Shown here: positions 20,867-44,800 of the stretch, piece by piece | How positions within the stretch are numbered: position 1 is the first letter of the stretch | Layout of the letters: each line of letters begins with the position of its first letter | NCBI GenBank assembly: GCA_963821875.1 | Contig: CAWGFE010000002.1 | Span: 3,014,021-3,078,020 of the forward strand | Length of the DNA: 64,000 nt | Reading direction: 5' to 3' | From: an uncultured Alphaproteobacteria bacterium | GTDB taxonomy: Bacteria; Pseudomonadota; Alphaproteobacteria; CAVTAV01 | The notes under the pieces: generated by a model | The model's input: only the letters and a program-made list of their open reading frames with translations | Database searches by the model: none | What the model was told of the DNA's origin: nothing | Made by a program: the position numbers and the translations under genes

Positions 20867-20870
20867 GAGC

Positions 20871-23202: not shown

Positions 23203-24552
23203 ATGAGCACCGACGCGGCAAATAAGGCAAGCAGTCACTTCTGGCACCCTATGCTGCATCCAAATGAAATGACGCGGCGCAGTCCGATCCGGATCGTTCG
23301 GGGCGACGGATGCTATGTTTACGACGACGAAGGAAAGAGGCTGGTCGACGGCGTGGCCGGTCTTTGGAACGTGAATGTTGGCCATAACCGCCCTGAAATG
23401 AAGCAGGCTATCGCCGAGCAGCTCGACAAGCTCGAATATTTTCAGCTGTTCGACGGCGTATCGCATCCGACCGCCGAGGAACTGGCTCAACGGGTCATAG
23501 AATTGTCGGACGAAGAGGACATGGGCCGCGTCCTGTTTAGTTCAGGAGGGTCGGATGCGGTCGAGACTGCGCTAAAGATCGCTCGTCAGTATTGGAAACT
23601 TGAAGGTCAACAGGACCGGACCAAGTTTATAGCCTTACGGCAAGGCTACCATGGCACGCATTTTGGTTCGGGATCCGTGAACGGCAATACGGCGTTCCGC
23701 CGTAACTATGAGCCCCTGCTGCCGGGATGCTTCCATGTCGAGACCCCTTGGCTCTATCGAAACCCGTTTACCGAAGACCCCGAAGAACTTGCCAAGATCT
23801 GCGCCGACCAGCTTGAGCGGGAGATAATCTTTCAGAGCCCGGACACGGTAGCGGCCTTCATTGCGGAACCCATACAGGGCGCCGGTGGCGTCATCGTCCC
23901 ACCGGCAAGCTATTGGCCTTTGGTTCGGAAGATCTGCGACAAATACGGAGTTTTGCTGATTTCCGACGAGGTTGTGACGGGATTTGGCCGTAGCGGTACG
24001 ATGTTCGGTTGTCGGGCATGGGGCGTCAAACCCGATATCATGTGCCTCGCGAAAGGCATTTCATCTGGCTACATTCCGTTGGGTGCCACGGTCGTCAACA
24101 AACGCATCGAAGACGCCTTCGCCAAAAACCAGGATTTCACAGGCGCAATCATGCACGGATACACCTATGCGGGCCATCCTGTTGCCTGCGCAGCCGCTCT
24201 TGCCTGCCTGAAGATAGTCGTCGACGAGGATCTGCCCGCCAACGCCGCAAAGCAAGGCGCTTACCTTTTAGAGCAACTCAAGCCCTTCGAACAACGATAC
24301 AAAACCGTCGGCGAAGTGCGCGGAAAGGGATTGATGATTGCGCTCGACCTGGTTCAGGACAAGATGACCCGGGAACCCATTGACCCCGAAGGCGGTTATG
24401 CCAACGAAGTCGCCGCCGCTGCAAGGGAGGCGGGCGCTCTGGTTCGACCGGTCGGCACGAAAATCATTCTGTCGCCGCCGCTCGTGTATCAAACCGAGCA
24501 TGTTGACGCTCTCGTCGCCGCATTGGATGCCGGCTTCAGAAAAGTCGACTAA
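23203..24552 (+). CDS. class III (omega) aminotransferase, amine:pyruvate type
   Basis: HFWHP...GLWNVNVGHNRPE, SGGSDAVE, DEVVTGFGRSG and a C-terminal LSPPL block. 449 aa. Confidence 0.9.
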   Translation: MSTDAANKASSHFWHPMLHPNEMTRRSPIRIVRGDGCYVYDDEGKRLVDGVAGLWNVNVGHNRPEMKQAIAEQLDKLEYFQLFDGVSHPTAEELAQRVIELSDEEDMGRVLFSSGGSDAVETALKIARQYWKLEGQQDRTKFIALRQGYHGTHFGSGSVNGNTAFRRNYEPLLPGCFHVETPWLYRNPFTEDPEELAKICADQLEREIIFQSPDTVAAFIAEPIQGAGGVIVPPASYWPLVRKICDKYGVLLISDEVVTGFGRSGTMFGCRAWGVKPDIMCLAKGISSGYIPLGATVVNKRIEDAFAKNQDFTGAIMHGYTYAGHPVACAAALACLKIVVDEDLPANAAKQGAYLLEQLKPFEQRYKTVGEVRGKGLMIALDLVQDKMTREPIDPEGGYANEVAAAAREAGALVRPVGTKIILSPPLVYQTEHVDALVAALDAGFRKVD

Positions 24553-24603
24553 GCACAGCCCAGCCTCAAGCGGCCGACAGCCAGTTTCGGGATCGCCCCA
24601 AAA

Positions 24604-26064
24604 ATGCTCGGTAAAAACGGAAAGACATCACGCCCAGAACACGGGGTCATAGGATTTCCCACGGCACTTGCCACTGCTGTCGGCCTAATCATGGCCAGCC
24701 CTGTGATCCTTACGGTCACCTCCGGATTTGGGACCGGTGGCAAAACCTTTGCAATCGCGATCGTAATCGCCTTCGTGATGATGCAGGCCCAAGCGATGTC
24801 TTTTGCCGAGGCGGCATCCATCTTGCCTACCACGGGCTCCGTCTATGACTACATCTCATGCGGCCTCGGACGCTTCTGCGCGATCGCGGGCACCATTTCG
24901 GCCTACGTGCTCGTCCATGTATTCGCGGGTACGGCAGAAACAATCCTCAGCGGCATCCTGGCGCTTGTCAATTTCGACACTCTCCACAACGCGCTGGAAA
25001 AGAGCGGGAGTTCCTGGCTGGTAGGTGTCGGGCTCGTTGTCCTGTTCGGATTCGTAAATGCATTCGGGATCAAGGTCTTCAGCAGGGTCGAGATCGTTCT
25101 GACGGCCGGCATGTGGACCACCTTGATGATCTTCGGCATCGTGGGCTTGCTATCGCCCCCCGTGGTCCACCTCCAGGGTTGGTTCGGGTCATCGGAGATT
25201 GGCACAGGCTTGCCCGCTACCCTGTCGCTCGTCGGTATGGCGATGTTCATGTTTGTCGGCTTCGAATTCGTGACGCCGCTTGCCGCAGAACTCAAGAATC
25301 CGGCGCGCCACATACCCAGGGCGATGACGATCGGGCTGTTTGCCGTGGCTGCTTGCATGTTGATCTATGGCAGCGCCATGCGTCATCAAGTCGAAAACGT
25401 TGCGGTTGGAAATGGATCCCATCTCCTGGACACCCCGATGGCGATTCCGACTTTCGCGATGCATGTCATGGGACCGGCCGGAAAAGTATGGCTTGGCATC
25501 GCTTTCCTGTTTGCCGGCGCCGCCACGATCAATACGTTGATGGCCGGTTTGCCGCGCATTATGTATGGCATGGCGATCGACGGATCCCTGCCCAAGATCT
25601 TTGCTTACCTGCATCCGAAGTATAAGACGCCAATCGTAGGAATTGCCGTTTCGGTCTTCATTCCGTGCTTCCACGCGTGGCTGATCAAAGGGGACATCGA
25701 CCGTCTCAACAACCTAGTGCTCGCCGCGGTCTGCGCCTGGGGCGTCGCCTATATCATGGTGAGTTTGTCGGTCATTTCGCTGAGGATCAGGCGTCCCGAT
25801 CTGCCGCGTCTTTATAAAACGCCACTCTTTCCTCTGCCCCAGATCATTTCGATTATCGGGATCGTGATTGCCATCTGGTACATCACGCCAATCGGAACAA
25901 GCGCCTGGCAGGTATACAAGTCGTTCGGCATCATGCTTCTGTTCACCCTCGCCTATGCATTTGTGTGGACGCGCTTTGTAAGACGTGTGCCCATGTTTGA
26001 GCCGGTGCCGGTCGAGAAAATTCTGGAAGAGGAGTTTGGCTCGGACGAAGGACAGCGCTTCTGA
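24604..26064 (+). CDS. APC-family amino acid/amine permease
   Basis: 486 aa with 12 predicted TM helices and APC-like motifs. Confidence 0.85.
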   Translation: MLGKNGKTSRPEHGVIGFPTALATAVGLIMASPVILTVTSGFGTGGKTFAIAIVIAFVMMQAQAMSFAEAASILPTTGSVYDYISCGLGRFCAIAGTISAYVLVHVFAGTAETILSGILALVNFDTLHNALEKSGSSWLVGVGLVVLFGFVNAFGIKVFSRVEIVLTAGMWTTLMIFGIVGLLSPPVVHLQGWFGSSEIGTGLPATLSLVGMAMFMFVGFEFVTPLAAELKNPARHIPRAMTIGLFAVAACMLIYGSAMRHQVENVAVGNGSHLLDTPMAIPTFAMHVMGPAGKVWLGIAFLFAGAATINTLMAGLPRIMYGMAIDGSLPKIFAYLHPKYKTPIVGIAVSVFIPCFHAWLIKGDIDRLNNLVLAAVCAWGVAYIMVSLSVISLRIRRPDLPRLYKTPLFPLPQIISIIGIVIAIWYITPIGTSAWQVYKSFGIMLLFTLAYAFVWTRFVRRVPMFEPVPVEKILEEEFGSDEGQRF

Positions 26065-26132
26065 ATGACGGACCCAATGTCTCAGAATCGGAGTTTTTCT
26101 GCATCGCTTTGTCCTGAGCCTGTCGCACTGTC

Positions 26133-26510
26133 ATGAGCCTTTATTACGTTCAGAAATTGCTCTATCGCCTCAACCGCAACGAGTTGACGCGAAAGCGCTT
26201 CGAGACCGAGCGTGAGAATCTGCTAGCGGAGTGCGAACTGACCGACGAAGAGCGCGAGGCGATCCTGAAACCGGATATAGGCTTGCTCTATGTCCTTGGC
26301 GTCAACGGCCAAATCCTGATGCATTATGCGGGCATGTGCCGTTACGAATGGGACGACTATCTCGATGCCATGCGGAAAGGCATTCAGCGCCACGGCCCGG
26401 TTCGGGCGGGTGTCTATGCGATGACAGGCTATCGAGGCGTTGAAGCCCACGATACTGAACTTCGAGAGCGTCGCGACAAGACAAAAGGCCGAGAGGACGA
26501 CCAGAATTGA
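26133..26510 (+). CDS. LigA-like small subunit of an aromatic-ring-opening (LigAB-type) dioxygenase
   Basis: 125 aa. The LN...RKRF..ERE.L..ECELTDEEREAIL..D...L...G pattern resembles protocatechuate 4,5-dioxygenase alpha subunits. Its stop overlaps the next start (ATGA). Confidence 0.5.
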   Translation: MSLYYVQKLLYRLNRNELTRKRFETERENLLAECELTDEEREAILKPDIGLLYVLGVNGQILMHYAGMCRYEWDDYLDAMRKGIQRHGPVRAGVYAMTGYRGVEAHDTELRERRDKTKGREDDQN

Positions 26511-27403
26511 TGACCATGCTCGATCGACTGAAGGGGTCCATTCCACCGCTCATCACTCCCTTCAAGGACGGCGAGGTGGACTATAAGACCTATGAGCGCC
26601 TGGTGGAGCGACAGATCACCGAAGGCTCCCACGGCATTCTGGTCAACGGCACGACCTCGGAACCGGCAACGCTGACGATCGAGGAACGCAACCGGACCTG
26701 CGACGTCGCGCTGGAGATTGCCAAGGGCCGGGTGCCCGTGGTCGTGGCGACGGGCTCGCAGTCCTTTGCCGAGACAAAGGCGCTGACAGATCACGCGGTC
26801 AAGGCCGGCGCCGACGCGCTTCTCATCGTCACGCCCTATTACACGCGGCCACCCCAACGCGGAATCATCCGCTACTATCTGGAACTCACCAAAGGCCATG
26901 ACGTGCCCTGGATGATCTATCACATCCCGGGTCGTGCCGCGGTCGACGTCAAGATCGATACGGTCAAGGAGCTCAAGGATATGTCGCCGACCTTTGTCGG
27001 CATGAAGCACGCCTCAAAGGATCTCGATTTCGTCAGCGACTGTTTTGCGGCAGTGGGCGGCGACTTCAAGATCTTCGTCGGCCTCGAGGACCTGTCCTTC
27101 CCGATGATGGCGGTCGGCGCCTGCGGGCTGATGAACGCCGTCGGCAATCTGCGTCCGGCCGTGCTGTCGGAGCTCTGCCAGGCCGTGTGGGACGGCAAAC
27201 TCGCCCACGCCAAGGCGCTGCATGATCTTCTTTACGAGATCAACAAGGCGGTGTTCTTCGACACCAATCCGATTCCGATGAAATACATGGCCAAGAAGCT
27301 CGGCATCATTGAGCGCAATGAACACCGCCTGCCTATGGTGCCGGCGACGCCGGAGCTTGAGCACCGCCTCGACGGCGTGCTGAAACGGACCGGGTTGCTG
27401 TAG
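26507..27403 (+). CDS. DapA/DHDPS-family class I aldolase
   Basis: LITPF, GILVNGTTSE, the Schiff-base Lys region KHAS and a Y in TPYY. 298 aa. Confidence 0.85.
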   Translation: MMTMLDRLKGSIPPLITPFKDGEVDYKTYERLVERQITEGSHGILVNGTTSEPATLTIEERNRTCDVALEIAKGRVPVVVATGSQSFAETKALTDHAVKAGADALLIVTPYYTRPPQRGIIRYYLELTKGHDVPWMIYHIPGRAAVDVKIDTVKELKDMSPTFVGMKHASKDLDFVSDCFAAVGGDFKIFVGLEDLSFPMMAVGACGLMNAVGNLRPAVLSELCQAVWDGKLAHAKALHDLLYEINKAVFFDTNPIPMKYMAKKLGIIERNEHRLPMVPATPELEHRLDGVLKRTGLL

Positions 27404-27419
27404 AGCATCAGCTCCTTTT

Positions 27420-28241
27420 TCACGCGACGTCCATTGTTGCGACGGTGCAGCCGACGGCGAAGATCGGGATCGGCTCGTAAAACCAGAGTTTGCCCGTCTT
27501 GCCCTCGGTCGCTCCGGCAACCGCGATGAAGGTGCGGATCTCGAAGCCGCCCTGCCCGGCCGTCTTGTAGGTCTCAATGTCGTTATAGGACAGCAGGTCG
27601 TCCTTCCGGTTGTTCAGGAACTTGTCCAGGAAGTCGCGGTCCCATTCCTCGTTGATCTTGCCCGAATCCGGCGTTGCCGGCCAATGCGAGATGCCGCCCG
27701 TACCGATCAGCGCAATCTTTTCCGGCAAGGCATCGGCCGCATGGCGGATCGCCTGGCCGAAGGCATAGGCGCGATGGAGCGGCGTCAACGGGGGACCCTG
27801 GCAATTGATATTGGCCGGGATTACGGCCATGTCATAATTGGGAGTCAGGAAATGGAGCGGCACCATGATGCCGTGATCGAATTTCCATTCCTCCGCATAG
27901 GCCGTGTCGACCTCTTCCATCACGCCTTGAATCAGGCGCCGCGAAAGGTCCTTGTTGCCGGGAATCTGGCGGCGCTCGATCTTCATCCAGTCGGGATCCT
28001 CGATCGGGCCCTCGTAATGATCCGCCATGCCGATCGCGAAGGCCGGCATGTTCTCCATGAAGAAATTGCCGAAATGCTCGGCCGCGATCACCACCAGCGC
28101 CTCCGCGCCCGAGGCCCGGATGGCGTCTCCCATCTCGCGGTAGGCCTTGTAGAACGGCTCGCGGACCGCCGGATCGGCGCGCTCCGCCCGGTTCACGATA
28201 CCCGGGGCGTGACTGCAAACACCCGCGAAAACCAGTGGCAT
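27420..28241 (-). CDS. LigB-type class III extradiol dioxygenase (HpaD-like)
   Basis: MPLVFAGVCSHAPG N-terminus typical of the LigB family. The Met at codon 52 of the track ORF sits 4 nt after the ALDH stop. Confidence 0.8.
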   Translation of the reverse strand: MPLVFAGVCSHAPGIVNRAERADPAVREPFYKAYREMGDAIRASGAEALVVIAAEHFGNFFMENMPAFAIGMADHYEGPIEDPDWMKIERRQIPGNKDLSRRLIQGVMEEVDTAYAEEWKFDHGIMVPLHFLTPNYDMAVIPANINCQGPPLTPLHRAYAFGQAIRHAADALPEKIALIGTGGISHWPATPDSGKINEEWDRDFLDKFLNNRKDDLLSYNDIETYKTAGQGGFEIRTFIAVAGATEGKTGKLWFYEPIPIFAVGCTVATMDVA

Positions 28242-28245
28242 GGCG

Positions 28246-29763
28246 CTACAGTCCCATCTTGGTGATTTTGTGGTTGTCTGTGGCGATGGCGATGTTTTTG
28301 GTTTCCATATAGAAGTCGAAGCTGTAATCGCCGCCGTCGCGGCCGATGCCGGAGGCTTTGACGCCGCCGAAAGGCGCGGGCAGATGGCGGACATTCTCCG
28401 AATTCACCCAGACCATGCCGGCCTCGACGTCATGCGCCACGCGGTGAGCGCGGCCGACATCGCGGGTCCAGATATAGGCCGTGAGGCCGTATTTCACGTC
28501 ATTCGCGATGCGAATGGCGTCTTCCTCGTCCTTGAACGGCACAGCGGTCAGGACCGGGCCGAAGATTTCTTCCTGAGCGATCCGCATACCCGTATTGGCG
28601 CCTGTGAACAGCGTGGGCTCGACGAAGCAGCCTTTGCCGCCTCCCGCCTCCGACGCCTTGCCGCCCGCCGCGATGGTCGCCCCGTCGGAGCGTGCGACAT
28701 CCATGTAAGAGAGCACCTTTTCGAGATGCCTTGGATGGATCAGCGGACCGACTTCGGTCCCCGGATCCAACGGATGGCCGACCTTCAGCTTCTTCACCCG
28801 CTCGGCGAGCCTGGCGGTGAACTCGTCATAGATGGACTCCTGGATCAGCGCGCGGCTCGACGATGTGCAGCGTTCGCCGTTCAGGCTGTAGATCATGAAG
28901 ATGACGGCATCGAGCGCGCGGTCGAGATCGGCATCGTCGAACACGAAGACCGGGTTCTTGCCGCCGAGCTCGAAATGCACGCGCTTCAGGGTCGGACCGC
29001 CCTGCTGCATGATCAGCCCGCCGGTCGCGGATTCGCCGACAAAACCGATCGCCTTGATGTCCGGGTGCTCGGTCAAGGCCTTGCCCGCCGTCTCGCCGAA
29101 GCCGTGCACAACGTTCCAGACGCCCGCCGGCAAGCCCGCCTCCTGGGCGATCTCGGCCAGAATCTGCGCCGTCAGCGGGCTCCATTCCGCCGGTTTGTGG
29201 ACGACCGTGCAGCCCGCTGCCAAGGCCGGGGCGATCTTCCAGGTCGACAGCATGAACGGCGTGTTCCAGGGCGTGATCACGCCCACCGGCCCGATCGGCT
29301 GGCGGATCGTGTAGTTCATCTGGCCGTCGGTCGGCAGCGAGAGGCCATTCGCCGCGGTCGGCGCGCGGTCGGCATAGAAGCGGAAATTGGCCGCGCCGCG
29401 CAGCGCCGCCTTGCTCATAAAGCGGATCGCCTGGCCGGTATCCAGACATTCGGTACAGGCGATCTCCTCGGCGCGCTTCTCGACAGCATCGGCGATCGCA
29501 TGAAGGATCGCCCGGCGCTCCTTGCCCGGCACCTTGCGCCAGCTCCCGAACGCCTCGGCGGCCGCTTTCGCCGCACGGTCGATATCGGCCGGCGTGCCCG
29601 AGGCGACCTTCGCCAAAAGCCGGCCGTCAATCGGCGAGTGCGTCTCGAAAGTCTCGCCGGTTCCCGGATCGGCCTTGCCGCCGATGAGGTGCGGGACCGT
29701 TTCATCTTTGAACCGCCCGACATAGGACTCGGCGGTTTTTACGGCGTCTTCAAGCTTGCTCAT
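28246..29763 (-). CDS. NAD-dependent aldehyde dehydrogenase (hydroxymuconic-semialdehyde dehydrogenase type, HpaE-like)
   Basis: FELGGKNP, an ERCTSSSR catalytic Cys block and GxGxxxG motifs. About 505 aa. Confidence 0.85.
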   Translation of the reverse strand: MSKLEDAVKTAESYVGRFKDETVPHLIGGKADPGTGETFETHSPIDGRLLAKVASGTPADIDRAAKAAAEAFGSWRKVPGKERRAILHAIADAVEKRAEEIACTECLDTGQAIRFMSKAALRGAANFRFYADRAPTAANGLSLPTDGQMNYTIRQPIGPVGVITPWNTPFMLSTWKIAPALAAGCTVVHKPAEWSPLTAQILAEIAQEAGLPAGVWNVVHGFGETAGKALTEHPDIKAIGFVGESATGGLIMQQGGPTLKRVHFELGGKNPVFVFDDADLDRALDAVIFMIYSLNGERCTSSSRALIQESIYDEFTARLAERVKKLKVGHPLDPGTEVGPLIHPRHLEKVLSYMDVARSDGATIAAGGKASEAGGGKGCFVEPTLFTGANTGMRIAQEEIFGPVLTAVPFKDEEDAIRIANDVKYGLTAYIWTRDVGRAHRVAHDVEAGMVWVNSENVRHLPAPFGGVKASGIGRDGGDYSFDFYMETKNIAIATDNHKITKMGL

Positions 29764-30151
29764 TCTGTGCCTCGGCGACAATACGCTCTCTTACGGTGTT
29801 GTGACGGACGGTGAACTGCGTGATCTCGTGAATTTCGACCGTGAGGGCATAGGGCCGCAAGGGCTCGGCGGCATCCAACCCATCGCGGGCGACCGCCAGC
29901 AGAGATTGCGCCAGCGCCCTCAGATCGTTCTTGTCGCGGCCCTCCCGCAGCCGGGCCACGATATGCATGAAGCTGTTGTCGGGATGGCGGTCCGCAATGC
30001 GATAGATCTGGCGCGGGGCGAACCGCGTGCGCAGCGCCGCGATATCCATCAGCCCGCTCGCCAGCGCCGCTTCATGAAGATTATCGGCAAGCAACTCCAA
30101 ATCAACGCCGTCGCTCAGATTATCGGAATATTCGACAATGACATGCGGCAT
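29750..30151 (-). CDS. 5-carboxymethyl-2-hydroxymuconate isomerase-like (HpaF/CHMI family)
   Basis: Begins MPHVIVEYSDNL, the hallmark CHMI N-terminus with catalytic Pro1. 133 aa. Overlaps the ALDH start. Confidence 0.75.
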   Translation of the reverse strand: MPHVIVEYSDNLSDGVDLELLADNLHEAALASGLMDIAALRTRFAPRQIYRIADRHPDNSFMHIVARLREGRDKNDLRALAQSLLAVARDGLDAAEPLRPYALTVEIHEITQFTVRHNTVRERIVAEAQNEQA

Positions 30152-30350
30152 CGCTCCGTCTCTGCCTCCCCTTCCACCGAAGAGCGGTTCAAACTCGGGT
30201 GCGCTTCAATGATTTTTTCGCGCTCGCAAGACATTGCCCAAACGACCTTTTCTTCAAGCTTGAGGTCGATCGGCGTTTCGAACGAACTGTAAGTATGTGA
30301 GGGCCAGGCCATCCGGCCTGACCCTCATCGCGAGACTTTGTTTTACGTGA

Positions 30351-32076
30351 CTAGTCGCTGTCTGCCCGGTAGACAACTTCTCCATTGATGATGGTCATCT
30401 TCACCTTGGTATTGTGAATATCCGTCACGGGGATCTTGTAGGGATCCCGGTCGGTTACCACCAGATCAGCCAGCATTCCCGGCTCAATCGTTCCAACCAG
30501 GTTTCTATGCTTCATTAAGACGGCGGAATTCACGGTGAACATATCCATCGCCTGCTTCAGCGTGATCCGCTCCTGGGCACCGAGCACCTCTCCACCGCCG
30601 CCCGGCTTCTGACGGGTCACCAGCGTTTCGATGGCCAGCCACGGATCGACCGAGGGAACGACCGACCAATCCGATCCGGGCACCACAAGTGCTCCGGAAT
30701 CGATCGCATCCTTGACCGGAATCCAGCGTTTCATCCGCTCCGGACCGATGGCCTTCTTGATGTCCGGAATAATCGGGTTCGGGTACCAGATGTATGGTGA
30801 CATCTCGAACGTTGCGGCAAGAGCGCGCCCACGCTTAATGTCGCTCATCTTCACGAAGCTGTTGTGTCCCGGATCATGCAGATTCCCCGAGGGACCGTTT
30901 GCTTTACGGGCTGCTTCGATCGCGTTCAGCGCCTCACGCACAGCTGCATCGCCGGCGGCATGAAACTTGACCGTCAAGCCTTCTTTGTCGAACCGCGTCA
31001 CGGCTCTACTCAGCACTTTCTGCGGCATCATGAGCAGGCCTTTCGCCCGCGGGCCCTTGGGATTCTTCGCGTCGGCATACGGATCTAGCATCGCCGCGGT
31101 GTGGCCGTCCGTCGGCACCCCATCGAGAAATATCTTGATGCAGCTCGGCGAGAAGCGGGCAGTCTTGTACAAGTTACGGCGCTGGATGGCCGTCTCGAAC
31201 ATCGGACTGCCGCCAGTCAGAGCGGAAGGCCGCCACATGATGCAGCCGACAACTCTGCTGCTTCAGCTCTCCTTCCTTGGAGAGTTCGTCATACGCCGCC
31301 ATGTTGTCTTCGCCTACGGCCGCGTCGGTGAGCGACGTGATGCCATAGGACAACATCTTATGAAGGGCCCACTTCAACGCTTTGACATTCTGTTCCGGAG
31401 TTGCCGGCGGGACCTTACTGCGAACCATATTGGCGCCGGCTTCCCGGAAGACGCCCGTCGGTTCACCCTTCGCATCACGCTCGATGATGCCGCCCGGCGG
31501 GTTCGGCGTCTTCGCCGTGACGCCAGCGACTTCTAGCGCCTTGGAATTCGCCCAAGCGCTATGCCCGCTGATATCGGTAAGCACGACTGGATTGTCCGGC
31601 GCTACCTTGTCCAACATCGCGCGGTTGGGCGGCGAGCCGATCGACGTGGCATCCCATTGTCCACCCGTGATCCACTCGCCTTTATTATGCTCTTTCACAC
31701 ATCCCGCGAGCGTCTTCTGAACGGTCGCCAGCGAGGAACCTTGGGGAAACCGGCATTGCAATTGCGCTAGTCCCGCCCCCATGGGATGGACATGCATGTC
31801 GTGCAAGCCCGGCAGGACGGTCGCGCCCTTCAGATCGATGACCTTGGTTTTGCCGGTCTTGTATTTGTCCACGGCTGAAGCGTCGCCAAGCCCGATGATG
31901 ACGCCTCTCTCCACGGCCATGGCCTGTACAGACCCTTTCGGCGTAACGATATCGCCGTTTGTCAGAATCATATCGGCCTGATCCTTCGCCGCGGCAGCCG
32001 TCAAGGCTGCTGCGGCACCAAGGGCCGCGATGGAAACCGCGGCGGCCAAAGCGTGTCGTCTGAACTGCTTCATAGT
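30351..32076 (-). pseudogene. secreted amidohydrolase-3 family protein, interrupted by a single-base frameshift near 31255-31262
   Basis: N-terminal ORF (31174..32223; signal MKQFRRHALAAAV.., HDMHVHP metal-binding motif) and C-terminal ORF (30351..31238), in different frames. They join as ...GELKQ / RVVGCIMWRP. Confidence 0.65.
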
Positions 32077-32379
32077 GTGACCCTCCAAGACTTCGTCCTC
32101 GTCAGGACAATTTAGCTCCCCGCTCGATGTCGCGCGCCGGACTGCGTTAGATCCTTTGCCGCACGCGTCCGAACGGACGATACCGTGGCAGGCGGGATCG
32201 AAACGATCCGGCGTCATCGACACTCAAGCTCTCCCGCGTATCGTAGTCGGCGTGCGACCGCGCCGCTTGCTTCAATTGGCCTGTGTCTTGACCGGTTGTG
32301 CCAACGAACCTGGCTGCCACGTGAAGCATGGGCTGGAGCGCCAATCGGCGGCCGTCAAGATATTTCCAAACGTTTCCAA

Positions 32380-32577
32380 TTACTTGGATCTATTTTTAAG
32401 AACCATTTCGCCGCCGATGATGACCATCTGCACCGTGGTCCGATGGACATCCGTTATCGAATCCGAAAAGGATTGCGATCGAGAACAATCACATCCCCCA
32501 GCAGGCCCCGGACGTATGCTTCCAAGGATAGTTGCCTGCCTCATCTGACGCGCGGAGTTGACCGTGAACAGGTCCAT
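32380..32577 (-). pseudogene. second amidohydrolase C-terminal remnant (degenerate paralog)
   Basis: MDLFTVNSARQMRQATILGSI...QMVIIGGEMVLKNRSK parallels the C-terminus of the 30351 gene (MDMFTVNSAVLMKHRNLVGTIEPGMLADLVV...KMTIINGEVVYRADSD), with an internal frame disruption. Confidence 0.4.
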
Positions 32578-32759
32578 CGCTCGCGCCCATCCCGAGGAGA
32601 AGTAGATCTAACCATGAACCAAGACGAGATCTGCGGACCCGGTTGGCCGACACAAGCAAAACCGATCACCGCAGTGAATAGCCTACTCCGAAAACCAGCC
32701 ATCGATGCCTCTTCAGTCTCTCGCCATCGCCTGAGATAGGCGGCGCCGCCGAAAACGGA

Positions 32760-33866
32760 TCACGATGTAAAGGGCAAGAATTCCATGCCTAAGGCCTGCG
32801 CGACGGCTTGATGAGCGATGTGACCGTCGTAGATGTTGAGGCCGCTGCCGAGATGCTTGTCCTGCGACATCGCTTGTCTCGTCCCAAGCTCCGCCAGCGC
32901 CCGTATGTGTGGCAATGTGGCATTTGTAAGCGCGACAGTGGACGTGCGAGCAAATGCACCCGGCATATTGGTGACGCAATAATGGACGATCCCATCGACC
33001 TCGAAAGTGGGGTCGGCATGCGTCGTCGGTCGGCTTGTCTCGAAGCAACCGCCCTGATCGATCGAAATGTCGACCATGACCGACCCCTTCCTCATATGTC
33101 CGAGCATGTTCCTCGTGACGAGCTTCGGAGCGGCAGCACCCGCAATAAGCACGGCGCCGATGACCAGATCGGCATTCGCAACCAGTCTTTCGATGGTCTC
33201 TGCCGTCGCGTATTCCGTCTTTAGTCGGGATCCGAAGATCGCCGCGATTTCGCGCAGCCGTTTCGTCGACCGGTCGACAACTGTCACGTCTGCTGTCAAT
33301 CCGACCGCCATCTCCGCGGCATGGCTTCCCGCCACTCCACCGCCAAGGACGACCACTCGTCCCGGCGACACTCCCGGAACGCCGCCCAATAGAACACCGG
33401 ATCCACCGAAGGCCTTCTGAAGGCACATAGCGCCGACTTGGACCGACATCCGGCCCGCAACCTCGCTCATTGGCGTCAACAGCGGCAACGAACCGTCGGA
33501 AGCTGTCACAGTTTCATAGGCAATGGCCGTCACACCCGATTGCAACAAGGCTTGCACCAGGTCCGGAGCGGCGGCCAAGTGAAGATAGGTGAAGAGAGTT
33601 TGGTCGGCGCGCAAAAATTTACATTCTCCGAGTTGTGGCTCTTTCACTTTGATGATCAGGTCGGCTCGATCAAAGACGTCTTCAGCGTATTCCAGAAGCT
33701 GCGCTCCCGCAGCTTCATACATGGCGTCGCTGAAGCCCACACCTGCACCCGCGTCGCGTTGAACAAAGACGTCGTGGCCCGCGTCGATCAGCTCGCGCAC
33801 GCCGGAAGGAACCATACCAACACGATACTCGTGAACCTTTATTTCCTTTGGAATTCCCACGCGCAT
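32760..33866 (-). CDS. ald: alanine dehydrogenase
   Basis: [18 protein letters not shown]-terminus, a [11 protein letters not shown] motif, and AlaDH/PNT family blocks. Confidence 0.9.
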
Positions 33867-34063
33867 TGCTTGTTTCACTGTCCTTGTTACTTCTAACCAA
33901 ACATAGGGATCCGTAACATCCCTGTCGTTTTACAGCGTCAATTTTCCGAGAACGCCGGATAGCCTGCTTCCCCGTCGATGACGGTCGTCGGAACCTTGGT
34001 TTTGTCGAAAAAAAGCCGGGGCCAGGGCACTCACGAAGAGGCCCCGGTCCGCGGTTAACGGAG

Positions 34064-36445
34064 TCAATACCTGTAGATCGCGGTGAGACCGACAGTGCGG
34101 GGCCGGAAAGTTGTTCGCTGATAGAGAATTACCGGGCCCGGCGGAGTGCTCTGCGACAGAATCGTGTGCGAATTGAGAAGATTGTTGACAAAGATGGAAA
34201 GGTCGACGTCCGACAGTTTTGTACCGATTCGAGCCGACAGAAGATTCGTTTCCGGAAGCAGGAATAGGTTGCTCGGATTGAAGGTCCCATTTGTCGGATT
34301 GGTCCCTGGCGTTATGCCTGACTGACCGCTTTGGTACTGATAATCGACTCGGGCGAAGCTGTCGTGATCGCCAAAGGCCGTGAAATTGTACTGTGCGGAA
34401 AATGCGCCGGTCCACGGTGAACCTGGAATGTGATCACCTTTGGTGACGAGATTGGTCGTCGCGGCTGGACCTCCCTGAACAGTCTGATCGAACTTCGCGT
34501 TCGTGTATCCGAATGAAAGCGAAATGACGAGATCGTCCACCGGTTCGACTTCCACCTGAAAGTCGACGCCCTTACTGGTAGCCGACCCCAAATTCGTGAC
34601 AAAGGTGAAGCCGCAGGAGTTGAGCGCGACTTGCTGCTGAATATTTCCCCAGTCGACATAGAAGGCACTTGAGCTGACCCGCAAACGTCCTCCAGCGAAT
34701 GAATTTTTCGATCCGACTTCGTAGCTCCACACATGATCCGAGCTATAGAGTTGAGGGGCCGCAGGCAGACCGAGGCTGGCAAGTTGCCCTCCGCAAGGCA
34801 AGCCGACCCGTGGATTATATCCTCCAATCCGGTACCCCTTGGCGACGCTGGCATAGACCATGTTGTCCGCATCGATTTTATAGGAAATGCCGCCCTTCGG
34901 CGTAATCGGGCTCTCTTTTTGCGACCCCGAATCGGCAACGTCCGGACCGACGACCGGCCCTCGATATTTGGCCTGAGCGTCGACGGTCGTTCTGGCCACC
35001 CGAATGCCCGCCGTTAGCGTGAGCTTATCGGTGACTTTGAGATCGGCCTGGCCGTACCCGGCGATCTGCTCGTCAGTCGCTTCGATCGGATCGGCGACGA
35101 AAGTGTATAGCCCATCGACGAGTCCTTGCCCGAAGAACGCGTTGAACGGAATCCCTGTATTCGCCTGAAACAGCGCCGGCAGGAACGTATCCTGCACGAA
35201 CTGACGAGCACTCTGATGGGCGTGCGTAAAGAATCCGCCAATCACCCACGTCAGGCGCGCGTCGTCGTTGGCGGATTGGAAGCGCACCTCTTGCGTCCAA
35301 TTCTTTTGAACATTGTACTGATTAGTCGGCGCGTAGAAGCCGGCGGGAAAGAACGCATTCGCTGCCCAGATTCCAGCTTCAAAGGCGGAATAGTCGTTGA
35401 TCGAGTGGTTATGGCGATCGAAATAGGACGTGTTCGACACAACGTCGACTCCGCCCAAATGCAGTTCGATCTTGAGGGACGGCAGCACGAACTTGTCTTT
35501 GCTAACGGCAGCCAGCGAGTTCCCGTTATTGAATTTGCCGTTGGACGGATCGGAAAGGACGGCCCAATAACTTGGTGTGTCGTTCAGACGAAGGTCCTGA
35601 TAGTAGATCGATGGCGTAATAGAGAGATTTTCGCTGGGAGCGAAAGTGAGGGCCGCCTTTAGGACGATCGAGTTTTGCCAGTTCGAATTGTTGTCCAGAG
35701 TATTTGTCGGCGCGTGAGTCGTGCGATCCCAGTCGACTCGATCAACCCAACCGCCATCTCTCCGATACCAGCCGCTGATACGGAAGCCAACTTTGTCCTG
35801 TACGATTGGCGCGCCGATCGCGGCGCCAGCTTCATAGCTGGGGTCACCACTTTCCGTGTAGCCAAGCTCCGAGCGCGCATAGGCTGAGAACTTATCGAGG
35901 TTCGGCTGCGGCGTTATGAACCGTACAGTACCGCCTTCCGACCCTGCGCCAAACAGCGTACCCTGAGGCCCGCGCAGAACCTCGACGCGCTCAACATCAA
36001 AGACTTCCGGAAAACTGTTGAAGGCGCTGTATCCGAGGGAACGCGACTGTATCGGTGTATCGTCGATATAAATGCCGGTCGTAGACGACCCAGCAGTCGA
36101 CGAAATGCCTCGGATCGCAATGTTTGACGCCAAGCCGTTTCGTGCGTCCGCTCTCGCAAACGAAATCCCGGGCGTTAGACGAGCCAGATCATCGATCTTG
36201 CGCACGCCTTGCATATCCATCCTCGCCTGACTGAAGGCACTCACGCTGATAGGAACGTTGGCCAGACTTTCACTGCGCCGTTGAGCGGTCACCATCACCT
36301 CTGGCAGGGCCCCAACTTCGGCGACCGTAGATTGAGCCGCATCTTCGGCGGCAGAAGCTCGCGCCAAAGGAAGACATGCGGATATAGCAAGCACAGATAC
36401 GGCACCCCAAGCACCGATAGCATTTCGTTCGGCTGACCAGCTCAT
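34064..36445 (-). CDS. TonB-dependent receptor
   Basis: Start MSWSAERN.. with a GGGAGG RBS, signal peptide, a plug domain (EVMVTAQRRSESLANVPISVSAF) and a C-terminal ...AIYRY. Confidence 0.9.
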   Translation of the reverse strand: MSWSAERNAIGAWGAVSVLAISACLPLARASAAEDAAQSTVAEVGALPEVMVTAQRRSESLANVPISVSAFSQARMDMQGVRKIDDLARLTPGISFARADARNGLASNIAIRGISSTAGSSTTGIYIDDTPIQSRSLGYSAFNSFPEVFDVERVEVLRGPQGTLFGAGSEGGTVRFITPQPNLDKFSAYARSELGYTESGDPSYEAGAAIGAPIVQDKVGFRISGWYRRDGGWVDRVDWDRTTHAPTNTLDNNSNWQNSIVLKAALTFAPSENLSITPSIYYQDLRLNDTPSYWAVLSDPSNGKFNNGNSLAAVSKDKFVLPSLKIELHLGGVDVVSNTSYFDRHNHSINDYSAFEAGIWAANAFFPAGFYAPTNQYNVQKNWTQEVRFQSANDDARLTWVIGGFFTHAHQSARQFVQDTFLPALFQANTGIPFNAFFGQGLVDGLYTFVADPIEATDEQIAGYGQADLKVTDKLTLTAGIRVARTTVDAQAKYRGPVVGPDVADSGSQKESPITPKGGISYKIDADNMVYASVAKGYRIGGYNPRVGLPCGGQLASLGLPAAPQLYSSDHVWSYEVGSKNSFAGGRLRVSSSAFYVDWGNIQQQVALNSCGFTFVTNLGSATSKGVDFQVEVEPVDDLVISLSFGYTNAKFDQTVQGGPAATTNLVTKGDHIPGSPWTGAFSAQYNFTAFGDHDSFARVDYQYQSGQSGITPGTNPTNGTFNPSNLFLLPETNLLSARIGTKLSDVDLSIFVNNLLNSHTILSQSTPPGPVILYQRTTFRPRTVGLTAIYRY

Positions 36446-36825
36446 TTGACGACCTCCCGACAAATCCCTGATATCCCAACCACAGCCGGTTGACCCGCGG
36501 TTGTTTGGTCTTCGCGACCAGTAATTGCGCCGCACCACACCCAGCATGAGAGGCTGTAGCGTAGAAGCGCTACAGATCGACTGTGCGACGCATTGTTTAC
36601 GAGTTTGCCTGAGCTATCGCGCAGGTTCTTGCTTGCGCTGGCCAATAACTTGACCGGCTTTGCCAATCGAACGCGGGCCGAGCCACCTTCTCCGAAACCC
36701 GGCTTTCAAGGGAATTTAGCGCTCTGAATCGAGACTTAAGTCCGGAGCTTTGCTCGCGTCACGCTGAACGGCGCCGTATTGATCATACGGGTCATGTCAG
36801 CTGCTTCTGATGAGTAGCTGACGGC

Positions 36826-37612
36826 TCATGCCTGCCGGGATCCAAGGCGCTTTGAGATCTGCTCCGCAACTTGCAGAACCTCCCTAACGAGACTGCCTTT
36901 CAGCGACAGGTCGAAGCTCCCTGTGTAGCCCAACGCAATCAAGGCCATTGCCATCATCCCGTTGTAGTCGAATACAGGCGCTGCTATTCCGCTGATGCCC
37001 GGGATGAAATCGCTCGTTCTCGCAATACCGTGACGTCGCGTCTGCTGCACCCAATGGTCCACTTCCTCGCGGGTCAAGGGTTGAAGACCGAGCCGCACAT
37101 TGTCCGTCAATTCGTCCGCCAGCAGCCTGGCAGTCATTTCATGGGGCAAGAAAGCCAGAAACGCGCCACCCGTCGCGGAGCGCGTGAGAGGCAAGACCGA
37201 CCCCAACCGGAGGCTCGCTGAAACCGGCGTATCGGACCCAAACCATCGAACGATCGTAGGTCCCTTATTCCCCCAGACGGCAACCGCAACTGTCTGTTGG
37301 AGCGACTCGCCAAGATCTCTGAGGATTGGTGTCGCCTGCTGGACCGGCTCCATTCGTGCCAAAGCGCTCAAGCCCAAATGCAAGGAGAATTCCCCAAGGT
37401 CATATCGTCCGGTCGCCGGATCTTGCTCCACGAGTTCCCATCCTCATGAAGCTCACCAGATATCGGTGGGCCTTCGCGGCCGGCATTTTGGCGGCCGCCG
37501 CAAGATCGCGGAGCATCATGGCATGCGAGGACTCAACTAACGCTCTGAGCAGCGCGGCGCCGACCTCGATCGACTGGACACCCTTACGGCTCTTCTCGGT
37601 CTCGTCACTCAT
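36826..37612 (-). pseudogene. IclR-family transcriptional regulator, interrupted by a single-base frameshift near 37427-37431
   Basis: The HTH N-terminus (37400..37612: GVQSIEVGAALLRAL...AHRYLVSFMRMG) and the effector domain (36826..37431) lie in different frames. The expected junction MRMG-LVEQDPATGRY is broken by one extra base. Confidence 0.65.
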
Positions 37613-37696
37613 GACGGCGGCATCCCATGTTGACAGAAGCGATCAGAGAATTTACGCTTTGTGAAATACATTTTATAATACGTAATTCCATGGCAG

Positions 37697-39241
37697 GTGA
37701 CCATGATGTCGGCAAAAGGGGAATGCAGCATGCGAGAGAATAGCTTGACCGGCAATGACAAGCATTCGGCAGGAGCGCGAAAGGGTGCACAAATCTTGCA
37801 GCGGCTCCGCGACCGGCCTCCGTCGATCTGGTACCGGGGCGAGCAGGTCCGCGATGTAACGGCGCATCCGGCTCTCGAAGGCGGCGTGCAGACGCTTGCG
37901 GAACTTTACGACCTTCAATGGCGGAACCCTGACGTTTCTCTCTACAAATCGCCCACGACCGGCGACTTGGTTGCGCGGTCTTTCATGATGCCACGAACTC
38001 ATGAAGAACTGCACAGCGTCACGAAGGCGATGAAGGTATGGGCGAATTACGCCTTTGGCATGATGGGGCGCGTGCCCGACTATATTAATCGGGCAATGAC
38101 GGGCTATGCCGCGGGGGCGCCGTTTCTCGCGGAAGCCGACCCTCGATTCGGCGAGAACGCCACCCGCTATTACGAGTATCTGCGAGAAAACGACCTTTGC
38201 TTGACCCACACACTGATCCCTCCCCAGGCCAATCGCGCAGCGAGCTCGGCGAACCAAGCCGATCCGTTTCTGGCCGCGCGCGTCAAGGAGGAAACCGACG
38301 CCGGGATCGTCGTGCGTGGGTGCCGGATGCTGGCGACCCTTCCGATCTCGGACGAAATCATGGTCTTCCCGTCCACTCTCCTGAAGAGTCCCGAAGAGGA
38401 CGCACCTTATGCCTTCGGCTTCGTTATCCCGAACGACACCCCCGGCTTGCGTTTCATATGCCGCGAGAGTGTCGACTACGGACGGTCCCATTTCGATCAT
38501 CCGCTCGGATCGCGGTTCGAAGAGATGGACGCGGTCGTTGTCTTTGATGACGTCTTCGTCCCTTGGGAGAACATATTCCTGTATCGCGATATAGATCGCT
38601 GCAATCAGGCCTATGCACGAACCGGCGCGGTCGTGCACATGACACATCAGGTTCTCGTCAAAAACATCGCGAAGACGGAATTCCTGCTGGGTCTGGCTTC
38701 GTTGCTGGTCAATACGATCGGCGTGGAGGTCTTCCAACATATCCAAGAAAAGCTTGCGGAGATCTGGGTCAATCTCGAAACGATGAAAGCGCTTTTGCGC
38801 GCCTCGGAAGCGGATGCCACTCTGGACGAATGGGGCGTGATGCGGCCCGCCTGGAATCCACTCGACGCCGCACGCAATCTGTACCCGAAATTGTATCCCC
38901 GAATGGTCGAGATCATTCAACAGATCGGGGCTAGCGGTCTGGTCGCGATGCCGACCGAGGCGGATCTCAAGGGTCCGCTCGTGGACGACATCAAGAAGTA
39001 TTATCAGGCGGCCCGCGCTGACGCCTTCGACCGGATCCCGATCTTCCGTCTTGCCTGGGACACGGCGCTCTCGGCCTTCGGGTCTCGTCAGGTACTGTAC
39101 GAACGCTTCTTCTTTGGGGATCCCGTTCGGATGGCCGGCGCTCTGGTGGCGGGACATGGCGCCGAAATAAAAGAGCTTGCTGGTAGAGTCCAAGAGTTCG
39201 TCAAAACGACGAAAGACGAGGCTTTCTCAGAGACCCCTTAA
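37697..39241 (+). CDS. hpaB: 4-hydroxyphenylacetate 3-monooxygenase oxygenase component family (HpaB-like)
   Basis: 514 aa; IWYRGEQVRDVTAHPAL near the N-terminus plus other HpaB family blocks. Divergent from the IclR gene. The start may instead be at 37730. Confidence 0.85.
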   Translation: MTMMSAKGECSMRENSLTGNDKHSAGARKGAQILQRLRDRPPSIWYRGEQVRDVTAHPALEGGVQTLAELYDLQWRNPDVSLYKSPTTGDLVARSFMMPRTHEELHSVTKAMKVWANYAFGMMGRVPDYINRAMTGYAAGAPFLAEADPRFGENATRYYEYLRENDLCLTHTLIPPQANRAASSANQADPFLAARVKEETDAGIVVRGCRMLATLPISDEIMVFPSTLLKSPEEDAPYAFGFVIPNDTPGLRFICRESVDYGRSHFDHPLGSRFEEMDAVVVFDDVFVPWENIFLYRDIDRCNQAYARTGAVVHMTHQVLVKNIAKTEFLLGLASLLVNTIGVEVFQHIQEKLAEIWVNLETMKALLRASEADATLDEWGVMRPAWNPLDAARNLYPKLYPRMVEIIQQIGASGLVAMPTEADLKGPLVDDIKKYYQAARADAFDRIPIFRLAWDTALSAFGSRQVLYERFFFGDPVRMAGALVAGHGAEIKELAGRVQEFVKTTKDEAFSETP

Positions 39242-39333
39242 CCGCGCCGCCGAAATTGAGCGACACCCTTTCGACAGGCGTCAGTCAGTATCATCGAGAT
39301 ATCCTAAGACGACGAAGACGAAGGTGCTGCCCA

Positions 39334-39891
39334 ATGACATTGAGTCAACGAGAGTTCCGAACAGCGATCGGACACTTTGCAACCGGCGTCGCCGTCATAG
39401 CCGCACAAGTCGGCGACGAGGTTCACGCTATGACGGCAAACGCGGTGTCGTCTCTCTCACTCGATCCTATGCTCATCCTCTTCTGCCCGAGCAAAGGGGC
39501 TCGCTTCGCTCAGTTCTTGCCGGAACTGACGGCATTCAGCATCAACATTCTGCGCGAAGAACAGCAGGCGTTGTCGAACTTCTTCGCGGGGGCATGGCGA
39601 GGCACACAGGCGCCGGCCTTCCGCTTTGTCCGTACGGCGGCCGGACCGCGCCTGGAAGGTGCTTTAGCCTCGCTGAACTGCGAACTCCTTGAGACTCTCG
39701 AAGGCGGGGATCATCTGGTCGTAATCGGACGTGTAACAGCGACACATATCGGCACGAGCCCGCGTCAACCCCTGATCTTCTTCAAAGGGCAGTATCGATC
39801 AATGAGTCTTGCGGAAGAGTCGCCGGCTCCCGATCTAGCCAATGTCAACGATGAGCCGGCGCATATATTTTACATGGGCACTCAACGTTAG
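39334..39891 (+). CDS. hpaC: flavin reductase (HpaC-like)
   Basis: FRTAIGHFATGVAVIA...MTANAVSSLSLDPML flavin reductase-like domain. The start is chosen at MTLSQREF; the track ORF begins at 39256. Confidence 0.8.
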   Translation: MTLSQREFRTAIGHFATGVAVIAAQVGDEVHAMTANAVSSLSLDPMLILFCPSKGARFAQFLPELTAFSINILREEQQALSNFFAGAWRGTQAPAFRFVRTAAGPRLEGALASLNCELLETLEGGDHLVVIGRVTATHIGTSPRQPLIFFKGQYRSMSLAEESPAPDLANVNDEPAHIFYMGTQR

Positions 39892-41575: not shown

Positions 41576-41613
41576 ATCTAAGCAAGCGCAGTCAAAATTT
41601 CGGGGGACGATCA

Positions 41614-44634: not shown

Positions 44635-44663
44635 GGTCTGTCATCAATTAGAGATTACAGTGA

Positions 44664-44719: not shown

Positions 44720-44800
44720 AATCCCTTAGACAAGAATGTGTCGAGGCAATGCCGACCGCATAGTAGTAGCTTGGATAATCAGCTTTTTATGAGGACGTAG

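Follow-up and report, generated by a model that had tools for sequence, protein, structure and literature searches.

A predicted homoprotocatechuate meta-cleavage variant with a LigAB-type dioxygenase and a DapA-family aldolase beside an amine transaminase operon in an uncultured alphaproteobacterium

The catabolic cluster described here lies in a 64,000-nucleotide stretch of DNA (the window; contig CAWGFE010000002.1, assembly GCA_963821875.1) from an uncultured soil alphaproteobacterium. Among described systems, the hpa (hpc) cluster of Escherichia coli W and C shares with it an HpaB/HpaC-type hydroxylase, HpaE (50% identical) and a putative CHMI tautomerase; the same end products, pyruvate and succinic semialdehyde, are predicted, and an FAH resembling the C-terminal part of HpaG is encoded in relatives of the locus and at a second locus, L174 (our own locus numbers carry the prefix L). 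The two systems differ in the dioxygenase, which is of the HpaD type in E. coli and of the two-subunit LigAB type in the window (35 bits against an HpaD cut-off of 316), in the HpaH hydratase, which is absent here, and in the aldolase, class II HpaI in E. coli and a class I DapA-family protein here. HpaR and HpaA are the regulators in E. coli, whereas the window encodes an IclR-family protein, and its HpaB belongs to the Thermus/Geobacillus HpaB-1 type. The closest solved structure to the dioxygenase is LigAB of Sphingobium sp. SYK-6 (PDB 1B4U/1BOU), which likewise consists of a separate small LigA and a catalytic LigB with conserved metal and catalytic residues. However, the match is only 95 bits, and SYK-6 has LigC, I, J and K downstream in place of HpaE, CHMI, FAH and DapA. 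The β subunit of the window is also some 30 residues shorter at the C-terminus, a stretch that in SYK-6 LigB presumably binds the substrate carboxylate. The family TIGR02313 ('HpaI-NOT-DapA') we take to be DapA paralogues in the 4-hydroxyphenylacetate operons of Thermus thermophilus and Oceanobacillus iheyensis, acting as the C7 aldolase; in both cases a DapA paralogue sits inside an hpa operon, but the window protein belongs to a separate clade (296 vs 397 bits). In Pseudomonas (P. aeruginosa PAO1 and the 'catabolon' of P. putida U), tyramine and dopamine are reportedly converted via arylacetaldehydes to (di)hydroxyphenylacetate, which enters the meta route. That route uses an amine oxidase or dehydrogenase (TynA) and canonical Hpa enzymes, in contrast to the pyruvate-dependent transaminase, alanine dehydrogenase (AlaDH) recycling and variant core module of the window. 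Taurine:pyruvate aminotransferase and AlaDH (Tpa-Ald) regenerate pyruvate and free ammonium; the design is the same here, with a different amine and a different downstream pathway.

We regard it as very likely that the core of the window locus encodes a variant of the homoprotocatechuate-type meta-cleavage pathway. The region as a whole is probably a lineage-specific fusion of this ring-cleavage module with IclR-hpaBC and with a peripheral amine/amide module, and we slightly favour the view that the peripheral module feeds an aromatic amine into the core. Families were assigned by listing open reading frames (ORFs) and by profile searches (Pfam, NCBIfam/TIGRFAM) across the 64-kb window. All the gene families named by an earlier reading of the sequence without database searches (the sequence-only reading) were recovered where it had placed them. 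The core and the hydroxylase segment comprise the following genes.

26133..26510, + strand: LigA-type α subunit of 125 residues (PF07746, 43.7 bits, cut-off 25.3)
26507..27403, + strand: DapA-family class I aldolase (PF00701, DHDPS family); 4-bp overlap between its start and the stop of LigA
27420..28241, - strand: LigB-type catalytic β subunit (PF02900, 133 bits); ends 16 bp from the DapA-like gene
28246..29781, - strand: HpaE, CHMS dehydrogenase (TIGR02299, 805 bits, cut-off 638)
29750..30151, - strand: CHMI, HpaF-like tautomerase (PF02962, 93 bits)
36826..37612, - strand: IclR-family regulator, divergent from hpaB (IclR_C in a 201-residue ORF)
37697..39241, + strand: HpaB, oxygenase component of 4-hydroxyphenylacetate 3-monooxygenase (TIGR02309, 657 bits, cut-off 480)
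39256..39891, + strand: HpaC-type flavin reductase (Flavin_Reduct, 122 bits; HpaC_Thermus, the best NCBIfam model, 123 bits, cut-off 200)

HpaE (TIGR02299) and HpaB-1 (TIGR02309) exceed their equivalog cut-offs, which supports the homoprotocatechuate-like meta route fed by HpaBC that the sequence-only reading had proposed. The dioxygenase is not of the HpaD type (TIGR02298, 34.7 bits, cut-off 316; no tblastn match to E. coli HpaD in the window) but of the LigAB type. CHMI is 25% identical to E. coli HpaF and scores 93 bits against the Pfam CHMI family (cut-off 26.5) and 43 bits against the equivalog NF011605 (cut-off 215). LigB was read from the start MPLVFAG, giving 273 residues instead of the 324 of the ORF. 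No homologue of HpaD, HpaG, HpaH or HpaI was found in the 64-kb window by tblastn with the E. coli proteins and, for HpaG, with FAH queries. All genes compared are under purifying selection, with ratios of nonsynonymous to synonymous substitution (dN/dS) of 0.02–0.13.

A survey with one genome per species gave 80 loci with LigB 68–92% identical to that of the window, and the gene order of related loci was mapped by tblastn. These 80 loci belong to Alpha-, Gamma- and Betaproteobacteria and to Acidimicrobiia; nearly all are metagenome-assembled genomes (MAGs), and the single cultured example is Nitrospirillum sp. BR 11163. An HpaG-like FAH, the DapA-like protein, CHMI, HpaE, LigA and LigB occur all six together in 23 genome loci and as subsets in many more. 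The module is spread through many uncultured Alpha- and Gammaproteobacteria, and LigA-LigB with parts of the set is found in Acidimicrobiia too. The part list that had seemed unusual is therefore not peculiar to this locus but that of a widespread module, which normally includes the FAH. Two orders recur (arrowheads give direction): <FAH <DapA CHMI> HpaE> LigA> LigB> and CHMI> HpaE> DapA> FAH> MarR> LigA> LigB>. In L025, the order is IclR-HpaB-HpaC-CHMI-HpaE-DapA-FAH-MarR-LigA-LigB, with MoaF nearby; the window HpaB is 82% identical to HpaB of L025, and the IclR that accompanies hpaBC there shares 54% identity with that of the window. The FAH of the relatives is a single-domain protein resembling the C-terminal half of HpaG (TIGR02303, 174 bits). 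No single simple inversion converts the gene order of L039 and L096 into that of the window.

LigA had been taken for an orphan by the sequence-only reading. It lies immediately 5' of LigB, on the same strand, in all 80 genome loci, and it adjoins LigB in 75 of 80 metagenome loci from a scan queried with LigA. As the two adjoin in 155 of these 160 related loci, LigA is no orphan, and the pair is predicted to form a two-subunit LigAB-type dioxygenase with LigA as the α subunit. Only in this lineage is LigA placed before the DapA-like gene, inside the transaminase operon. Aligned to 1b4u_B, LigB keeps the equivalents of His12, His61 and Glu242 (the iron site) and of the catalytic His195, and because the metal ligands and the catalytic histidine are kept, the subunit appears to be catalytically competent. 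dN/dS is 0.10 for LigA and 0.06 for LigB.

The same LigAB clade (68–72% identical) is also found in other contexts, in the Acidimicrobiia loci L023, L049, L056, L062, L068, L069, L074, L075 and L080 and in the alphaproteobacterial genome L082. The order in Acidimicrobiia is FMN-dependent dehydrogenase (FMN_dh), LigA, LigB and two class III transaminases; in L082 it is CHMI, LigA, LigB and a decarboxylase dependent on pyridoxal phosphate (PLP). The clade is thus repeatedly linked to amine enzymes. In many gammaproteobacterial modules (L006, L020, L028, L038, L041, L050, L053, L057, L059 and others), a convergent Amidohydro_2 gene (PF04909, the family of LigI, LigJ and decarboxylases) lies just 3' of LigB; the window has none.

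The best NCBIfam model for the DapA-like protein is TIGR02313, at 296.5 bits (cut-off 396.7). The protein passes the dapA equivalog TIGR00674 (260 bits, cut-off 206), so that automated annotation would name it a DHDPS ('4-hydroxy-tetrahydrodipicolinate synthase'). It is present in 34 genome loci, where it adjoins FAH, CHMI, HpaE and LigAB, and it lies near hpaBC in L025 and the window. HpaH or HpaI is present in about 10 loci, none of which carries the DapA-like gene; the 34 loci with the DapA-like gene, and the window too, are without HpaH and HpaI. As it never shares a locus with either, the DapA-like protein is predicted to substitute for HpaH and HpaI. The clade keeps Thr44, Tyr107, Tyr133, Arg138, Lys161 and Gly186 (numbering of E. 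coli DapA, reference sequence compared with 1dhp), the Schiff-base Lys161, the Tyr133/Thr44/Tyr107 triad and Arg138 being kept in 28–30 of 30 members. D187L, D188E, I203M, N80Q and H56R are invariant substitutions of the clade, and dN/dS is 0.08. The invariant substitutions and the catabolic context argue against a role in lysine/diaminopimelate synthesis with aspartate semialdehyde as substrate. The protein is predicted to be a 4-hydroxy-2-oxoheptanedioate (hydratase-)aldolase; succinic semialdehyde and aspartate semialdehyde differ by the amino group only, which would make a DapA paralogue a natural recruit for this cleavage. NahE-type hydratase-aldolases, of the same superfamily as DapA, hydrate via a Schiff base. 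By analogy with them, and because HpaH is missing from every DapA-containing locus, the DapA-like protein may also hydrate the 2-oxo-3-enoate. The substitution of DapA for HpaI is already foreseen by TIGR02313. A non-canonical pathway with a DapA-family aldolase and a LigA/LigB dioxygenase, as the sequence-only reading had suspected, was borne out.

With the FAH of L096 as query, a 99%-identical protein was found on contig_46836 of ENA assembly ERZ25039500 (L174), which also holds the window-like contig L083. An 87%-identical protein was found at L172 (ERZ25039549, contig_34451, 2.4 Mb), about 1 Mb from the window-like L081. Both loci carry a complete second module in the order <LigB <LigA' DapA'> beta-lactamase-fold> tannase> <HpaE <CHMI FAH>. 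The neighbours at L174 are an RPE65-family oxygenase, a long MoaF-domain protein, two glutathione S-transferases (GSTs), an SDR, an aldehyde dehydrogenase (ALDH) resembling StyD (743 bits), MaoC, ADH and a CoA ligase; those at L172 are the same minus the RPE65 oxygenase, and the locus ends inside the MaoC gene. The tannase, GSTs, StyD-like ALDH and CoA ligase give the second module a plant-phenolic context at both loci. At the DNA level, the window and L174 are 99.5% identical in LigB (dS 0.005) and 99.6% in CHMI-HpaE (dS ~0.01), as against 82.8% in DapA (dS 0.8) and 78.5% in LigA (dS saturated). In the sister genome, where L081 and L172 share one contig, the corresponding values are 95% for LigB, 97% for CHMI-HpaE, 98% for DapA and 79% for LigA. 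Between the two genomes, the same genes are only 80–86% identical. The higher identity within genomes than between them indicates an old duplication, parts of whose two copies are homogenised by gene conversion. Only the second locus encodes FAH and the StyD-like ALDH, and both would need to act in trans. The absence of HpaG, HpaH and HpaI noted by the sequence-only reading thus holds for the window, but HpaG is not dispensed with, being encoded at the paralogous locus L174.

The remaining genes of the cluster, which are mostly peripheral, are these.

16818..19190, - strand: TonB-dependent receptor for outer-membrane uptake (Plug + TonB_dep_Rec_b-barrel); left edge of the peripheral module
20057..20935, - strand: SDR oxidoreductase 1 (adh_short_C2); true start probably near 20806
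20871..21653, - strand: SDR oxidoreductase 2 (adh_short_C2)
21741..22586, - strand: MoaF-family protein (MoaF + MoaF_C), divergent from the transaminase
23203..24552, + strand: class III amine:pyruvate-type (omega) transaminase (PF00202, Aminotran_3, 354 bits; NF005683, 802 bits)
24604..26064, + strand: APC permease, probable amine importer (AA_permease_2)
30351..32073, - strand: Amidohydro_3 metal hydrolase, secreted (signal peptide); two ORFs match profile halves 1-213 and 223-472
32760..33878, - strand: AlaDH (TIGR00518, 498 bits, cut-off 392)
34064..36547, - strand: second TonB-dependent receptor (Plug + barrel)
39980..43137, + strand: two tandem Abhydrolase_10 hydrolases (PF20091, 426 and 411 bits), co-directional with hpaBC
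43180..46432, + strand: amidase-signature amidase (PF01425, 322 bits; NF004816, 592 bits) and carboxylesterase (COesterase, 328 bits), with short gaps

The transaminase, the APC permease, LigA and the DapA-like gene form a run on the + strand. It meets a convergent run on the - strand that reads, from upstream to downstream, IclR, TonB-dependent receptor, AlaDH, Amidohydro_3, CHMI, HpaE and LigB. The cluster is wider than the interval 23203–39891 first delimited, reaching left to 16818 (MoaF, the two SDRs and a TonB-dependent receptor) and right to 46432. The pairing of an amine:pyruvate transaminase with AlaDH was confirmed: the best PDB match of the transaminase is the omega transaminase 5lh9 (598 bits), with 6s54 also matched, its closest relatives being amine/omega transaminases, and the class III omega-transaminase shares the cluster with a bona fide AlaDH. 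The full junction of the transaminase, APC, LigA and DapA genes with convergent LigB is present in L081 and L083, and transaminase-APC-LigA(-DapA) in L092 and L095; the 4-bp LigA/DapA overlap recurs in these loci. Misassembly as the source of the LigA-DapA/LigB arrangement was rejected, as the junction is common to L083 and L081, from separate ENA assemblies, and the order to L092 and L095. The operon fusion is real.

Orthologues of the transaminase (dN/dS 0.03) that are 77–84% identical occur in Pseudomonas, Burkholderia, Chromobacterium and many MAGs. The Pseudomonas locus (transaminase 79%) has AraC, DUF3156, APC and ALDH, then the transaminase, LuxR, MoaF, a second transaminase and an SDR; that of Burkholderia (also 79%) has ALDH, transaminase, APC, DUF3156 and AraC. 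The metagenome loci L090/L091 carry Abhydrolase_10, tannase, TonB-dependent receptor, SDR, SDR and MoaF in one group and Abhydrolase_10, Amidohydro_3, transaminase and APC in the other. The window APC is 65–68% identical to its counterparts in Pseudomonas and Burkholderia, and up to 71% when L090 is included. The window MoaF is about 50% identical to the MoaF beside the transaminase orthologues in Pseudomonas and L090, the Burkholderia locus having none. SDR 1 is 56–60% identical to SDRs in Pseudomonas and L090, and SDR 2 59–70% to those in L089 and L090. The window Amidohydro_3 is 71% identical to the gene before the transaminase in L090, and the window Abhydrolase_10 is 72.5% identical to the L090 Abhydrolase_10 beside Amidohydro_3 and the transaminase. 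By this conservation of content, the transaminase, APC, MoaF, SDR, Amidohydro_3 and Abhydrolase_10 genes form a separate conserved module. Since the peripheral genes are unlinked to the core in other lineages, the 'supercluster' of the sequence-only reading, a real arrangement, is a fusion specific to this lineage, joining two or three gene sets that are each conserved on their own.

The ALDH that adjoins the orthologous transaminases bears on the substrate. Its best family is StyD, phenylacetaldehyde dehydrogenase (764 bits in Pseudomonas, 701 in Burkholderia, cut-off 850), which scores ~180–240 bits above the next family (about 525). MoaF is named after the Klebsiella monoamine regulon. As the transaminase orthologues (79%) adjoin a StyD-like ALDH, and MoaF, an arylethylamine or amide substrate, as the sequence-only reading had suggested, gains indirect support, the StyD-like ALDH being the best evidence here for an arylethylamine. 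For MoaF with transaminases and for feruloyltyramine amidohydrolases, no characterised member was found in the literature searched.

Several findings weigh against a fused pathway from an aromatic amine to homoprotocatechuate cleavage. In no other lineage do the peripheral genes show linkage to the ring-cleavage module, no arylacetaldehyde dehydrogenase is found among the genes of the 64-kb window, and in JGI annotation the transaminase family goes by the name putrescine-pyruvate transaminase. LigB is far from the solved homoprotocatechuate dioxygenases (25 bits) and nearer to enzymes for protocatechuate, gallate and 2,3-dihydroxyphenylpropionate, and the DapA-like protein lies under the TIGR02313 cut-off and over that of dapA. 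In the literature searched, neither the LigAB clade nor the DapA-like clade of the window has a characterised member, nor is there an assay of the TIGR02313 clade. No operator shared among the promoter regions was found (12-mers with up to 2 mismatches; matches at chance level). That L174 and the window belong to one organism is inferred from the shared assembly, the 99.5% identity of the shared segments and the sister genome.

The second and third of these points, with the transaminase-APC module occurring free of ring-cleavage genes in Pseudomonas, Burkholderia and L090, would also fit a transaminase/APC/AlaDH set that handles an aliphatic amine or omega-amino acid (putrescine, 4-aminobutyrate (GABA) or β-alanine) and shares only the pyruvate/succinic-semialdehyde node with the core. 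A GABA:pyruvate transaminase would make succinic semialdehyde, which CHMS dehydrogenases can oxidise; that of A. baumannii does so (PMC12718150). We consider this unlikely. LigA and DapA lie inside the transaminase-APC operon with a 4-bp overlap conserved in five assemblies, the ALDH that accompanies the orthologous transaminases resembles StyD and not PuuC, KauB or GabD, and MoaF accompanies both the transaminase and, in L025, hpaBC.

The similarity of LigB also raises the question of which catechol is cleaved. The best PDB match is SYK-6 LigB, a protocatechuate 4,5-dioxygenase (95 bits), followed by gallate dioxygenase (77 bits) and MhpB, the 2,3-dihydroxyphenylpropionate dioxygenase (72 bits); all the protocatechuate and gallate dioxygenase equivalog models are far under their cut-offs. 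By similarity, LigB belongs to the protocatechuate family of the LigB superfamily, for which AromaDeg lists no homoprotocatechuate-cleaving cluster, only many clusters of unknown function. LigAB might thus open protocatechuate, gallate, dihydroxyphenylpropionate or a catecholamine (dopamine or L-DOPA), with analogous products downstream, and the CHMI-LigA-LigB-decarboxylase order of L082 and the FMN_dh-LigA-LigB-transaminase order of Acidimicrobiia would agree with such a role. This is less probable still than an aliphatic amine. An HpaE equivalog lies directly 5' of LigB or LigA-LigB in the window and many relatives, CHMI occurs together with the HpaG-C-like FAH, and hpaBC lies alongside in the window and in L025. 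No LigC, LigI/J or LigK-type Pfam domain is found among the window genes; the canonical ligABCIJK set is the subject of the SAR116 preprint. The aldolase resembles DapA, whose aldehyde substrate is succinic semialdehyde plus an amino group. As LigB similarity points elsewhere, it is the gene context, with conserved hpa-type surroundings and the HpaE equivalog, that argues for 3,4-dihydroxyphenylacetate (homoprotocatechuate) as the substrate of LigAB.

Two genes of the region are interrupted. Amidohydro_3 is split near 31257 by a 1-bp insertion, and removal of one base restores 573 residues; IclR is split in the same way near 37438, and removal of one base gives 261 residues with HTH_IclR and IclR_C. 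In all, four single-base insertions (13286, 13734, 31257 and ~37438), not in long homopolymers, break a MacB/FtsX permease, DUF3299, Amidohydro_3 and IclR. Over 21 kb, the contig L083 (ENA ERZ25039500) matches the window at 99.84% identity; the two differ by 31 substitutions and by 3 indels, each of them a 1-bp insertion in the window (13286, 13734 and 31257) that breaks a gene intact in L083 (Amidohydro_3 has 573 residues there). True pseudogenisation of the amidohydrolase is for this reason less likely than an assembly error, and the insertions in the amidohydrolase and IclR are probably both errors of this kind. Elsewhere in the window, the 2-Hacid_dh_C ORF at 48958-49602 is without its N-terminal domain and the GH3 gene at 51010-53094 matches the start of the C-terminal domain only; a frameshift like those above may be the cause in each case. 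That the DapA-like protein is an ordinary DHDPS and LigA a decaying remnant, the window copy being a partly degraded duplicate, would accord with the dapA cut-off passed, the missing FAH, the two frameshifted genes and the complete paralogous module, but is highly improbable given dN/dS of 0.10 for LigA and 0.08 for DapA, the tie of the DapA-like gene to FAH, CHMI and HpaE in 34 loci with invariant clade substitutions, the absence of the amidohydrolase frameshift from the near-identical L083, and gene conversion that preserves CHMI-HpaE-LigB.

For the reading that we prefer, an aromatic amine channelled into homoprotocatechuate cleavage, the following scheme is proposed, in which all substrates are predicted. 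Amide or ester conjugates would pass the outer membrane via the TonB-dependent receptors, and the secreted hydrolases (Amidohydro_3, Abhydrolase_10, amidase and esterase) would release an arylethylamine, for instance tyramine or dopamine, to be imported by the APC permease. The transaminase would convert it with pyruvate to the arylacetaldehyde and alanine; AlaDH would regenerate pyruvate, which the aldolase would supply as well. A StyD-like ALDH acting in trans, or HpaE itself, would oxidise the aldehyde to 4-hydroxyphenylacetate, and HpaBC would hydroxylate this to the catechol, 3,4-dihydroxyphenylacetate. Breadth of range is seen in a related enzyme, the CHMS dehydrogenase of A. baumannii, which accepts succinic semialdehyde as well (PMC12718150). 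LigAB, with Fe(II), would open the ring. From their family assignments, HpaE would oxidise the semialdehyde and CHMI tautomerise the product; the HpaG-like FAH, in trans, would decarboxylate the tricarboxylate. Finally, the DapA-like protein would split the C7 keto-acid into pyruvate and succinic semialdehyde via a lysine Schiff base, probably performing the hydration too. A wider proposal joins several claims: that for many uncultured bacteria of soil and sea, among Alpha- and Gammaproteobacteria and Acidimicrobiia, a protocatechuate-family LigAB is the main homoprotocatechuate-cleaving enzyme, that the DapA-family protein is a bifunctional hydratase-aldolase in place of both HpaH and HpaI, that the two converted loci share one FAH, and that one copy serves amines from plant amide conjugates (e.g. 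hydroxycinnamoyl-tyramines). Taken jointly, these are tentative, with the balance somewhat against all of them holding.

The chemistry and most of the families are known; the locus is an uncharacterised but widespread version of the pathway. Three features appear to be uncharacterised in the literature searched: a protocatechuate-family LigAB serving as dioxygenase in an hpa-type pathway, DapA loci that consistently lack HpaH, and the fusion to the transaminase operon. In JGI annotation the dioxygenase is called '2,3-dihydroxyphenylpropionate dioxygenase' or simply an extradiol dioxygenase; with such names on this enzyme and on the aldolase, metagenome surveys are likely to overlook a common route by which uncultured soil and marine bacteria use the carbon of (hydroxy)phenylacetate and biogenic amines. 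If the LigAB substrate and the DapA-type (hydratase-)aldolase are correctly predicted, two well-studied superfamilies would each gain an enzyme function, and the genes would serve as markers for the turnover of tyramine-, dopamine- and hydroxytyrosol-type carbon. The two loci and their gene conversion illustrate how a catabolic module, once duplicated, comes to be connected to a new peripheral pathway.

The AT-rich iclR-hpaB intergenic region (37640-37690) contains an imperfect inverted repeat, ATTTACG...CGTAAT, over a promoter-like site, TTTACG-17-TATAAT. The repeat is a candidate IclR operator; no similar site was found at the other promoters. A promoter and terminator scan gave matches at chance level only, and an Rfam search found nothing in the window. 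At the left of the cluster, a segment with TetR, an unknown gene and the TonB-dependent receptor is flanked by direct repeats, 15031-15381 with 19299-19649 (99% identical) and 15747-16099 with 19660-20012 (~90% identical). The second copy consists of the 5' end of an AraC gene with its upstream region and a TetR fragment without the helix-turn-helix, and the repeats mark a segment that has been partly duplicated on the upstream side of the receptor gene.

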